This document shows, in pieces, positions 7,415-10,312 of a DNA stretch of 52,911 nucleotides (the first letter of the stretch is position 1; each line of letters begins with the position of its first letter). Location of the stretch: the IMG/VR virus record IMGVR_UViG_3300032242_000759, positions 1-52,911 of that record; one strand, written 5' to 3'. The notes under the pieces are model-generated. The model made no database searches, had not been told where the DNA came from, and saw only the letters and a list, made by a program, of their open reading frames with translations. The stretch comes from a virus (taxonomy: Duplodnaviria; Caudoviricetes). The position numbers were made by a program, and so were the translations under genes.

Positions 7415-10312
7415 ATGGGTGCCGTTGTAAGCGCAGTTGAGAGTGTTGTTAGCGCGGTAGGCAATGCCGTAGGCGAAGTTGTCCATGCAGCAGAACAAGT
7501 TGTAGAGACAGTCGTTAAAGACGTAGTCGAGCCTGTTGCAAAAGTTGTTGAAAACACTGTTCAAAGCGCCATCAACGATCCAATTGGAACAATTGCCAGA
7601 GTTGCTGCTGTAGCCACAGGCAACGTCGAATTGCTGCCATTGATTGGTGCGGCTGATGCGGCAGCACATGGGGCTTCTCTTGACAAAATTTTGCTTAGTG
7701 CAGGCACATCGTATGTGGCTGGTCAAATCGGCACCAATATTGGCGATCAGATTGGTACTGGGATCAGTAACAACTTTGATGTTTGCTTGAGTTGCAAGGT
7801 ACAGGATGCATTAAACAGTGGTGTCAAAGGTGCTACAGGTTCACTTCTGCGCGGTAAAAATCCTTTGTGCGGCGCAATCAGCGGCGTTGTCAATAACGAA
7901 CTTAACTGTGGCATCAAGACTGCATACAAGTGCATCACCAGCGGGTCAAGTGATTGCGGCCCTAAATGCACAGCGTTGCCTATTGTTACTCGTGGATTGT
8001 CTAATGATTGCACTCAAGGCTGTGCATCAAAAGTCAATGTTGGCGCTTTACCAACCATTTCCAACAACAACGATCAAATTTCGAATAACCAACAATGTTG
8101 TGTCTCTACCAACAATAATTTAAATAACAAAAATTGTTCCACTAATACATCGTTCCAAGGCTACCCATCCGTTCAAGCATTTTTGAATGCTCAAAATCAA
8201 AAGTTTGCTGAGGATCGCGGATTTCCTGATTTTGCAACTGGAGCAAAATTTGGTTGGGATTGCGTTGCTTACAACAATCAAAACCAAACATGTGCCACCA
8301 CAAACATCAGCCCAGTAACCGTCACTGGTCAAAAAGGAAATTGTTGTGTTGGTGCACTGCCAACGGTAATGACATCAACAAATACAAATGTATGTTGCTC
8401 TTCTAAGGTCGGTGCATTACCAACTGCAAATGTTATTGGCAATTGCTGCTCATGCATTACACCTATAACCACTGTTACAAACAAAACAAGTGATTGCTGC
8501 ATACCTGTTACCAGAGGATTGACATCGGTCACAAGTAAAACGAACGATTGCTGCGTTTGCACAAGTCCAGTAACCACCGTTACAAGCAAAACAAATGATT
8601 GCTGCGTGCCTGCGATAGGTGGCTTACCAACCGTTACTACAACGTCGAAAACAACTGATTGCTGTGTATGCACCACACCAGCAGTAACGACCACTGCAAA
8701 GACAAGTGATTGTTGCGTTCCTGCGGTAGGCGGTTTACCAACCATTGCCACAACTTCAAAAACAACTGATTGTTGCGTACCAAGCGTTCCGTTAATTAAC
8801 GTAACTGGAAAATCTGGCGATTGCTGTAATTGTTGTATTCCCGCATTGCCACCCGTAACTGTCACAGGGAAAAAAGACACCTGCTGTTGCATTCCTGAAC
8901 TGCCTCCAGTTACCGTCACTGGCAAAAGAATTGATTGCTGCTGTATCCCTGAATTACCACCTGTTACCGTAACGGGCAAAAAATCAGACTGCTGCTGTAT
9001 TCCAGAATTGCCTCCCGTTACAGTAACGGGCAAAAAAATTGACTGCTGTTGTGTTCAAGAGTTGCCACCTGTCACCGTAACAGGTAAAAAAATTGATTGC
9101 TGTTGCATTCCTGAATTACCTCCAGTTACCGTAACGGGTAAAAAAATTGATTGCTGTTGCACTGTTGAACTTCCACCTGTTACTGTTACAGGAAAGAAAA
9201 ACTCATGTTGCTGCACCACAGAGTTACCTCCAGTAACTGTTACAGGTAAAAAAATTGCTTGTTGCTGCACTACGGAGTTGCCACCTGTCACCGTAACTGG
9301 TAAAAAAATTAATTGCAGCGATTGTTGTGATTGCTGCAAAATTCCGAATATTAATTTTCCAAAATTTAGTACTCCAGTTACAAAACCCAAAAAGCCTGCT
9401 AAGAAAACAACGACTGCATTGGGTGGTCTTGGATGCGGCGCTATTCCATGGCTGAATTCCGCTCCTGAAGTTTTAGCAAATGCAAACAGCCTGAGTCATA
9501 TTCTTAAAAGAGATGAGAACAGCTTGAAAAATATTCAAAATCAAATTAACCCAGACTTGTTGGAACTTATGAAGCAGCGCGGTAATTTTGGCGGCGTACC
9601 TGAAGTGAAAATTGGTGGCTTGTCAGCATTAGATTGCTCTCCAACTGGTTACGCTGTCGGTGGTTGTGTGGCTGGTTGTACGTTTTGCATGAACCAAAGT
9701 CCAAAGTACATGCCAAGATTTGTGTGCACTGGCGCAGATGTATTGTCTGGTTCTTCTGCATCGCGTCATGCTCCAACATCATTGGCTCAACTCAAACAAA
9801 TGCGTGCCCAAATTTCCCAAATGGGGAACATGGGCGGCATGGCACATGGTGGATTGCCACGCAAATATGCAGAGGCTGCTCCCGAAGGTCACCATCCTGA
9901 ATTCATTACCGGAATGACAGGGTACTATGCATGTGGTGGCGGCACTGGTCAGTCAGACGACATTCCAGCCATGCTCCATGACGGCGACTATGTGATGGAC
10001 GCTGAGGCTGTATCTGCGCTTGGCGACGGTTCTAGCAAGGCTGGCCGCGAAGTCTTGGATGGCTTCCGCAAACAAGTTCCACACCACGAATCAACCAAAG
10101 GCCAAGCGGTTCCGGCCAAGATTGCTGATGGTGAATACGTTTTCCCCGCTGGATTTGTGACCGCTATCGGTGGCGGCAGCAATAAAAAAGGCGCTGAAAT
10201 TCTAAATGGCCTGCGTGAGCAATTACGAATGCACAAAAGATCAGCACCCACCAGTAAAATACCCCCTAAAGCGAAATCACCGCTGGACTACATCAAGAAG
10301 GCGAAAGGTTAA
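7415..10312 (+). CDS. Internal virion / ejection protein 1: Cys-rich, tandem repeats, duplicated C-terminal GTGQSDDIPAML.DG.YV domain
   Basis: 965 aa; amphipathic MGAVVSAV N-terminus; about 75 Cys by manual count; located in the ejection-gene block. Confidence 0.75.
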   Translation: MGAVVSAVESVVSAVGNAVGEVVHAAEQVVETVVKDVVEPVAKVVENTVQSAINDPIGTIARVAAVATGNVELLPLIGAADAAAHGASLDKILLSAGTSYVAGQIGTNIGDQIGTGISNNFDVCLSCKVQDALNSGVKGATGSLLRGKNPLCGAISGVVNNELNCGIKTAYKCITSGSSDCGPKCTALPIVTRGLSNDCTQGCASKVNVGALPTISNNNDQISNNQQCCVSTNNNLNNKNCSTNTSFQGYPSVQAFLNAQNQKFAEDRGFPDFATGAKFGWDCVAYNNQNQTCATTNISPVTVTGQKGNCCVGALPTVMTSTNTNVCCSSKVGALPTANVIGNCCSCITPITTVTNKTSDCCIPVTRGLTSVTSKTNDCCVCTSPVTTVTSKTNDCCVPAIGGLPTVTTTSKTTDCCVCTTPAVTTTAKTSDCCVPAVGGLPTIATTSKTTDCCVPSVPLINVTGKSGDCCNCCIPALPPVTVTGKKDTCCCIPELPPVTVTGKRIDCCCIPELPPVTVTGKKSDCCCIPELPPVTVTGKKIDCCCVQELPPVTVTGKKIDCCCIPELPPVTVTGKKIDCCCTVELPPVTVTGKKNSCCCTTELPPVTVTGKKIACCCTTELPPVTVTGKKINCSDCCDCCKIPNINFPKFSTPVTKPKKPAKKTTTALGGLGCGAIPWLNSAPEVLANANSLSHILKRDENSLKNIQNQINPDLLELMKQRGNFGGVPEVKIGGLSALDCSPTGYAVGGCVAGCTFCMNQSPKYMPRFVCTGADVLSGSSASRHAPTSLAQLKQMRAQISQMGNMGGMAHGGLPRKYAEAAPEGHHPEFITGMTGYYACGGGTGQSDDIPAMLHDGDYVMDAEAVSALGDGSSKAGREVLDGFRKQVPHHESTKGQAVPAKIADGEYVFPAGFVTAIGGGSNKKGAEILNGLREQLRMHKRSAPTSKIPPKAKSPLDYIKKAKG
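8831..9316 (+). repeat. Nine in-frame 54-bp (18-aa) tandem repeats, CCxxELPPVTVTGKKxxC; degenerate copies extend upstream to about 8310
   Basis: PPVTVTGK occurs 9 times at a 54-nt period, with synonymous codon variation between units. Confidence 0.95.

Follow-up and report, generated by a model that had tools for sequence, protein, structure and literature searches.

An array of nine TonB-box-like units in a putative ejection protein of an IMG/VR phage

The locus and its nine-unit array

The DNA analyzed (the window, 52,911 bases) is the complete IMG/VR virus record IMGVR_UViG_3300032242_000759, assigned to the Caudoviricetes, with direct terminal repeats at its ends and a guanine-plus-cytosine content of 47–54%. 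No tRNA genes were found in the window. Within a large open reading frame (ORF) that follows the tail genes and putatively encodes an ejection or internal virion protein, an 18-amino-acid (aa) unit is repeated nine times in tandem, and its core, LPPVTVTG, resembles the TonB boxes found in outer membrane transporters and in group B colicins. This ORF and the two large ORFs behind it are called EJ1, EJ2 and EJ3; the names are labels coined here for the ORFs at the positions given in Table 1.

LPPVTVTG was present in all nine units, ELPPVTVTG in eight (unit 1 has A in place of E) and GKK in eight (unit 2 has GKR). Tandem Repeats Finder returned a period of 54 (8.1 copies, 76% matches, score 364) at 8882–9316 and a period of 162 (2.9 copies, score 400) at 8834–9307. 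Twelve of the 18 positions are invariant in the peptide (C1, C2, L6, P7, P8, V9, T10, V11, T12, G13, K14 and C18), and each of the 12 is encoded by two to four different codons. Across the 36 pairs of units, mean identity was 73% for nucleotides and 83% for amino acids, codon differences numbered 294 synonymous versus 111 non-synonymous, and base differences fell 77, 87 and 357 times on codon positions 1, 2 and 3 (357/521 on the third). Since the peptide is kept while its codons have diverged synonymously, the array peptide is held by purifying selection and the copies are old rather than recent. A role of the 54-nucleotide repeat at the DNA level is unlikely, as the copies differ mainly at third codon positions.

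Degenerate forms of the unit precede the array, among them ISPVTVTGQK (aa 298; 10.3 bits on the TonB-box profile described below), GGLPTVTTTSK (around aa 407) and VPLINVTGKS (aa 462). The first-pass annotation of this DNA, made from the letters alone, had described the ninefold 18-aa unit, selection on its peptide and degenerate versions upstream, and all three were recovered. Its motif, ELPPVTVTGKK in every copy, was right for LPPVTVTG in all nine and wrong in one unit each for the leading E and the KK. The Lys/Pro-rich stretch that closes the variable middle of EJ1 also trails the Cys-rich or repeat region in EJ1 relatives.

Two minus-strand ORFs overlapping this region, 8329–9033 (234 aa) and 9055–9390 (111 aa), are almost certainly not genes; it is the ORF on the plus strand whose ends are conserved and for which homologues number in the hundreds. 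Both minus-strand ORFs also spell PVTVTGG repeats, because CCN-GTN-ACN-GTN-ACN-GGN is symmetric under reverse complement.

Table 1. Features of the EJ1 region, in positions of the window
Feature	Position	Strand	Description
Nine-unit array	8831–9316	+	Nine 18-aa units CC-x-x-[E/A]-LPPVTVTGK-[K/R]-x-x-C; aa 473–634, in frame of EJ1
Degenerate units	8306–8830	+	About ten CC-anchored units of 17–20 aa (CC..[G][G/A]LPT/PVT.T.K..D); aa ~298–472, from translation
End of variable middle	9317–9424	+	SDCCDCC, then Lys/Pro-rich basic stretch (KIPNINFPKFSTPVTKPKKPAKK); from translation
EJ1	7415–10312	+	965 aa, 75 Cys; first in the run of large genes after the tail genes; putative ejection/internal virion protein
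EJ1 N-terminal domain	7415–7939	+	aa 1–175; Ala/Val/Gly-rich amphipathic helices; AlphaFold2 with alignment, helices at 2–175, pLDDT about 50–78
EJ1 C-terminal domain	9791–10312	+	aa 793–965; conserved, with internal duplication (beta-hairpin plus helices, twice)
Virion/tail-type genes	1259–1897, 1900–3336, 3336–5354	–	Upstream of EJ1 (strand not listed)
EJ2	10315–12213	+	632 aa, 27 Cys; Gln/Ala-rich repeats; C-terminal cysteine string CCCTCCCTCCCC
EJ3	12217–14049	+	610 aa; weak cell-wall peptidase signal

Comparison with transporter TonB boxes

In the accessible text of PMC9841981 the TonB box is described as semi-conserved and five to seven residues long, and in that of PMC11658791 local secondary structure is given more weight for its function than individual side chains. 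PMC9841981 also cites published work with a TonB-box pentapeptide and with TonB fragments in the periplasm. A set of 39 transporters was assembled from nine full-length E. coli K-12 sequences and 30 loci on five plasmids (Bacteroidota, Alpha- and Betaproteobacteria). From each, the stretch of 40 residues preceding the Plug domain was submitted to unsupervised, one-site-per-sequence expectation-maximization at width 10, and the profile obtained was run over the 47 plus-strand phage ORFs of at least 100 aa (14,365 ten-residue windows). The motif found, L-[E/D]-[E/T]-V-[V/T/I]-V-[T/V]-[G/A]-x-[R/G], recovered the known box in 8 of the 9 E. coli K-12 transporters.

Scoring against such a profile had been proposed in the first-pass annotation, and the units behaved like mid-range real boxes. 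Eight scored 13.2 bits and one 16.1 bits, taking ranks 1 and 3–10 of all windows. Leave-one-out scores of the 39 real boxes had a median of 16.3 and a lower quartile of 10.2, so that the units lie between the 33rd and the 49th percentile (13/39 boxes score below 13.2 bits, 19/39 below 16.1). Column order counted: one in 5,000 column-shuffled profiles attained the observed mean of 27 distinct phage 10-mers. When the test was reversed, a profile of the phage motif placed the known TonB box among the top three windows for 5 of the 9 E. coli transporters. These scores support the view that the array falls within the sequence space of real TonB boxes. Whether its units are TonB boxes is a question that sequence alone cannot settle.

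The motif in relatives and in other proteins

Variants found in relatives include LDTVTVTGSK (24.2 bits), LPTVTVTGTK (22.3), LEPVTVAAQR (21.8) and LPEVVVTGKR (20.5); judged by the profile, they stay inside TonB-box space and score like good real boxes. An exhaustive HMMER search with the 162-aa array as query returned 74 proteins at E ≤ 0.001, eight of which contain at least three profile matches of at least 11 bits. Four of these, free of cysteine (P0125, P0129, P0132 and P0175), hold 4–10 copies of the motif, as ELPPVTVTAKREEE or LDPVTITGKRD units, at irregular spacings of 13–38 aa (13, 15, 20, 27, 32 and 38 aa in P0125); in P0007 the spacing is 24–30 aa. The N-terminus of the four is Gly/Ala-rich, as in some EJ1 homologues, and their C-terminus is different. 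Relatives of P0132 lie in phage contigs, with tail-type genes directly ahead of them and three large Cys-free ORFs behind. In a further, small protein, P0179 (147 aa), five LEPITVTGNKSDKK-type units scoring 11.7–20.2 bits come after what looks like a signal peptide.

Motif arrays in Cys-free proteins at the ejection position indicate that the motif is a portable module of such proteins, independent of cysteines. That every proposed handle is paired with a CCC cluster, as first annotated, is thus real in this phage and not general.

Genomic context and identity of EJ1

The position of EJ1, after tail genes and before two more large genes, is the layout of an ejection protein. The last of the tail-type ORFs (3336–5354) matched PHROG 3287 (E 1.9e-27). 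EJ3 gave weak matches to PHROG 465, endolysin (E 4.6e-05), and to Pfam VanY (E 0.0064, under the Pfam cut-off), so that a run of large genes follows the tail genes and one of them carries a hydrolase signal. Gene order of the region is kept in MW202545.1, whose syntenic part holds a gene annotated 'transglycosylase SLT domain', and in those IMG/VR loci that reach far enough. According to the accessible text of a review of ejection proteins (PMC8954989), those of short-tailed phages have such a gene layout and are expected to pass through the portal into the envelope.

EJ1 matched no Pfam family. Its sole library match was a 44-aa segment (aa 828–871) to PHROG 6090, 'tape measure protein' (E 6.1e-07), which covers only profile positions 1092–1135 of 1,853; no dedicated search was made for tail-tube or tape-measure chaperone genes. 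With a model of the whole protein, Foldseek returned no match at E ≤ 0.001, and the best VIA-align hits (Z 6.1) were helical hairpins and uninformative. On gene order and this one short domain match, EJ1 is probably an ejected protein.

The EJ1 family and its termini

Of 7,996 candidates scored in a word-index search, 449 were EJ1 homologues at E ≤ 0.001. The homologues come by the hundreds from uncultured phages and combine conserved ends with a hypervariable middle, which accounts for almost all of the variation in length (574 to 1,374 aa). From one lineage to another the middle changes completely: the closest relatives have Cys-plus-LPTVTVTGKK repeats, and others have cysteine-only tracts, coiled coils, or Thr/Pro-rich sequence with GGLP.

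The N-terminal domain is made of repeated amphipathic helices rich in Val, Ala and Glu (aa 1–175). A search of Protein Data Bank (PDB) sequences with the family profile gave, for this domain, only non-significant rows to alpha-synuclein repeats (E 0.36–0.68). Two long EJ1 relatives carry precomputed Pfam matches of apolipoprotein type in their middles. There are hints that the N-terminal domain may bind lipid.

All invariant columns of a 69-sequence alignment fall at aa 793–959 of EJ1. Within the C-terminal domain, aa 850–945 were modeled with a predicted local distance difference test (pLDDT) score of about 90 by AlphaFold2 with alignment. The two duplicated copies, IPAMLHDGDYVMDAEAVSALGDGSSKAGREVL and VPAKIADGEYVFPAGFVTAIGGGSNKKGAEIL (aa ~850–945, window 9960–10250), were each modeled confidently, and one copy is common to 'tape measure' proteins of Caulobacter phages: aa 828–892 matched gp066 of phages RW, RLK, KcrB and GB2A (50.8%). 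By portal protein, too, these Caulobacter phages are the nearest cultured relatives (45.5% identity over 86%; PMC11053796); further portal relatives are phages of Roseobacter and Pelagibacter, which we take to be short-tailed. RW, RLK, KcrB and GB2A have been placed in a proposed genus, Riverwalkvirus. Gene gp066c of phage RLK (L137 10531–12273) is the cultured-phage counterpart of EJ1.

A second short motif, G-[G/A]-L-P, recurs many times in the otherwise unrelated variable middles of P0087, P0096, P0108, P0119, L012 and L020. It is also found in EJ1 at aa ~205–445 and, once in the conserved C-terminal domain, at aa 812–815 as GGLPxKY; this may be one of the older linear motifs in the family.

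Cysteine content of EJ1 and EJ2

Of the 75 cysteines among the 965 residues of EJ1, 54 lie in aa 291–640. Its homologues contain from 0 to 148; the maximum occurs in a protein of 665 aa (about 22%), and the Cys-richest members carry long CCTxCC or TCCCD tracts and lack the VTVTG motif. In the 65 loci where both genes are complete, the cysteine fraction of EJ2 rises and falls with that of EJ1 (Spearman 0.86). EJ1 is Cys-free in 13 of 67 loci, and wherever a Cys-free EJ1 could be paired with its EJ2, the latter was Cys-free as well (12/12 loci). The other ORFs remain at about 0.7% Cys regardless of EJ1 (Spearman −0.06, n=67). Our guess at what lies behind the coupled content would be metal bridges or disulfides that link the two proteins. 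No paper on cysteine-rich ejection or internal virion proteins was found in the open-access literature searched.

The cysteine string near the C-terminus of EJ2, CCCTCCCTCCCC, is encoded by a 12-nucleotide tandem repeat, TGCTGCTGCACT (2.8 copies, 12076–12108).

Three genes lie between the tail genes and EJ1 (5536–7413). The first is acyl-carrier-like, has DSL at residue 54 and matched nothing in the libraries; the second encodes a FabF-like ketoacyl synthase (Pfam PF02801, 3.5e-17; PF00109, 8.1e-07) with motifs ACAS, HGTGT and GHTxG at residues 128, 271 and 303; the third encodes an uncharacterized 143-aa protein. Of 81 related loci, 12 contain the acyl-carrier/ketoacyl-synthase cassette. The idea that its products S-acylate the cysteine strings was considered and dropped, the cassette being confined to these 12 and not associated with Cys-rich homologues (with cassette, 8 rich and 4 poor; without, 23 rich and 30 poor; Fisher p = 0.20).

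Predicted fold of the array

AlphaFold2 with an alignment left the middle of EJ1 unstructured, with no secondary structure and pLDDT of about 30–38; the alignment is poor there. Run on the single sequence of aa 455–660, it gave a parallel beta-helix in which every unit forms one coil (mean pLDDT 67.5; predicted template modeling score, pTM, 0.68). In this model ten strands recur exactly every 18 residues and pLDDT is 70–87 at the center; VTVTGKKxxCCC forms the strand and IPELPP the turn. Foldseek found no significant match to it (best E 0.067). VIA-align returned beta-helices only, the best being 3p4g_A (Z 14.4; root-mean-square deviation 3.9 Å over 194 aligned residues), with pectate and alginate lyases at Z 11–13 and 117 chains at Z ≥ 8; by the program's own note, Z below about 13 is common for repeats. 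AlphaFold2 is known to turn perfect repeats into solenoids. A self-contained solenoid, named at first pass as a finding that would refute TonB engagement, was thus obtained without an alignment and not with one.

Proposed TonB engagement and its alternatives

In this conserved phage protein the middle module is hypervariable and differs in length, and the array makes up its regular core; each unit presents the 11-residue ELPPVTVTGKK flanked by a cysteine triplet. A periplasmic location is suggested by gene order. Our tentative reading, for which confidence is low, is that the units are handles that would engage host TonB. It was ranked first because it is the sole hypothesis of a specific partner that the sequence supports and because it fits a protein entering the periplasm from outside; a beta-helical rod was ranked close behind it, followed by a cysteine-cluster scaffold and a motif for some other partner. 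TonB boxes of transporters and group B colicins pair with the C-terminal domain of TonB by beta-augmentation. EJ1, at least partly unfolded, would leave the virion by way of the narrow portal-tail channel, its middle would emerge in the periplasm as an extended chain, and its VTVTG strands would pair in that manner with the C-terminal domain of host TonB. Nine or more copies would make the contact multivalent, and as an outcome the TonB-ExbBD motor could exert traction, the nascent ejection channel could be tethered to a partner anchored in the inner membrane, or TonB could be sequestered.

A number of findings weigh against TonB engagement, beginning with the single-sequence beta-helix. The profile is unspecific: in 80 related loci, 75 matches of at least 13 bits were counted in 277,285 windows of other proteins (2.7 per 10,000) and 23 in 57,403 windows of EJ1 homologues (4.0 per 10,000), and single strands of folded tail proteins score up to 22 bits. 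The chance of a window of at least 13 bits in one 18-aa unit is about 0.5%, a figure uncorrected for the resemblance having been sought. An 8-column profile derived from just the nine E. coli K-12 boxes did not place any of the units among its top 30 hits in the 47 ORFs, so the TonB-box likeness first annotated is seen with the 39-transporter profile and not with the E. coli one. At the site of Asp/Glu-Thr in E. coli boxes the units have Pro-Pro, and they carry Lys at a position that is Lys-free in all 39 boxes. Searches with the 162-aa array found no family in NCBIfam (E up to 10; no curated transporter model), none in Pfam and no PDB sequence (E up to 10); the ESM Atlas gave no usable match to the array. 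The motif is also a minority trait of the EJ1 family, present by pattern in 31 of 201 sequences and by profile in 32 of the 120 homologues listed and in 13 of 80 loci, and in many relatives its place is taken by a cysteine-only tract, a coiled coil or Thr/Pro-rich sequence. Since most relatives lack it, the motif is dispensable for the core function of the family. No precedent for a phage-borne TonB box, in a virion or ejection protein, was found in the open-access literature searched, and the word 'TonB' is absent from the accessible text of the ejection-protein review (PMC8954989). The proposed role is a prediction from likeness of sequence, and it leaves the role of the cysteines unexplained.

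As a structural rod, which we consider possible but doubtful, the nine units and the roughly ten degenerate ones would form a parallel beta-helix of one 18-residue coil per unit (beta-helices rise about 4.8 Å per coil). Such a rod would be a thin, rigid spacer with its length set by copy number and stabilized by cysteine ladders, part of the envelope-spanning ejection conduit or of an internal core, and any Val/Thr strand that runs into a Gly turn would then yield the likeness to TonB boxes as a by-product. The single-sequence model and its exclusively beta-helical VIA-align matches argue for it, as do the exact spacing of the units in this phage, the spread of family lengths, which lies mostly in the middle as for a ruler or spacer, and the matches of the TonB-box profile to ordinary strands of folded tail proteins. 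The beta-helix model is weakened because solenoids predicted from perfect repeats are unreliable, because no residue on either face of the strand varies (V, T, V and T are all fixed) where a solenoid usually fixes one face, and because spacing in relatives is irregular. A regular coil could not absorb intervals of 13–38 aa, and beads on a string fit them better than a solenoid. The unstructured middle of the alignment-based model (with its poor alignment), the Foldseek result and the program's note on Z for repeats count against the rod as well.

That the CC and CCC clusters are what matters is unlikely, in spite of their abundance. They would bind metal or iron-sulfur centers or form disulfides, within EJ1 or with EJ2, and so lock the proteins in the capsid core or trap them by oxidation in the periplasm, which is oxidizing (PMC8954989, accessible text); ELPPVTVTGKK would merely space and present them. 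The concentration of cysteines in the middle of EJ1, the homologues that reach 148 without any VTVTG motif, the cysteine string that ends EJ2 and the co-variation of the two proteins against a constant background in the remaining ORFs are all consistent with such a scaffold. It leaves unexplained why all 11 spacer residues are invariant under synonymous drift and why the motif is arrayed in Cys-free proteins; no metal-binding or iron-sulfur family was matched in Pfam or NCBIfam, and about a fifth of loci (those with a Cys-free EJ1) would lack it. Comparably improbable is a linear motif that binds something else than TonB: the partner could be on the phage side, the motif docking onto portal, capsid interior, scaffold or DNA as the virion is assembled, or it could be another strand-accepting protein of the periplasm. 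The motif is tandem, portable and selected, and lies in a region not predicted to fold, and with G-[G/A]-L-P in the middles of many relatives and GGLPxKY at the C-terminus, LPPVTVTG may derive from an older motif of the family. No candidate partner was identified, and the fit to the transporter profile (Leu at position 1, Gly/Ala at position 8, Lys/Arg at position 10) would have to be coincidence.

The interest of TonB engagement lies in an open question, namely how short-tailed phages move ejection proteins and DNA across the periplasm and from what source the energy comes. Bacteriocins cross by offering a TonB box to the host motor. In a more elaborate form, a long shot, an aquatic group of short-tailed phages would carry multivalent TonB boxes by which TonB-ExbBD, driven by the proton-motive force, reels the ejected chain across the periplasm and helps to build or position the DNA conduit; in this phage the Cys triplets would also lock successive segments by oxidation or metal and render the ratchet irreversible. 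This, if true, would be colicin-type, energy-coupled genome delivery by a virus. If the arrays bind TonB, they would be the first phage-borne TonB boxes and a natural source of multivalent TonB-box peptides; binding would account for the hypervariable module in hundreds of uncultured freshwater phages, and it predicts TonB-dependent host range and routes of resistance. If they do not, the puzzle stays that two neighboring virion-type proteins swing together from 0% to about 22% cysteine.

Comparison with known systems

As with the ejection proteins of T7 (gp14, gp15, gp16) and P22 (gp7, gp20, gp16), EJ1 and its neighbors form a run of large genes directly behind the tail genes, of which one has a hydrolase signal for the cell wall, and the termini of EJ1 are likewise predicted to be helical and partly hydrophobic. 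Unlike those proteins, to which Pfam, PDB-sequence, Foldseek and VIA-align searches showed no clear similarity of sequence or fold, EJ1, as a putative ejection protein, belongs to a family with a hypervariable and often extremely Cys-rich middle. The gp066 proteins of Caulobacter phages RW, RLK, KcrB and GB2A share with EJ1 the gene order and the C-terminal motif; the GB2A protein is annotated 'tail length tape measure protein'. Unlike EJ1, gp066 has 580 aa and a Gly/Thr/Pro-rich middle with no regular array, only degenerate strands (VDEIVVTP, VDPVVVNP, VSPVTVSP, VDELVIKP; best 9.3 bits).

The single-sequence model of the array superposes on 3p4g, a Ca-dependent beta-helical antifreeze protein, with one coil per about 18 residues in both. 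Unlike 3p4g, with which the array has 4% sequence identity, it is known from a moderately confident model that was not reproduced with an alignment, and spacing in its relatives is irregular.

With the TonB boxes of transporters and group B colicins the units share a short Val/Thr strand that ends in Gly/Ala and is often followed by Arg/Lys, and, as with colicins, the protein that bears them is expected to enter the periplasm from outside. The array differs in having at least nine tandem copies versus one, in an internal rather than N-terminal position. Its units start with Pro-Pro and have Cys-triplet flanks, unlike the enterobacterial box (Asp/Glu-Thr-x-x-Val-x-Ala), and EJ1, unlike transporters and colicins, has no Plug, barrel or colicin domain in Pfam or NCBIfam.

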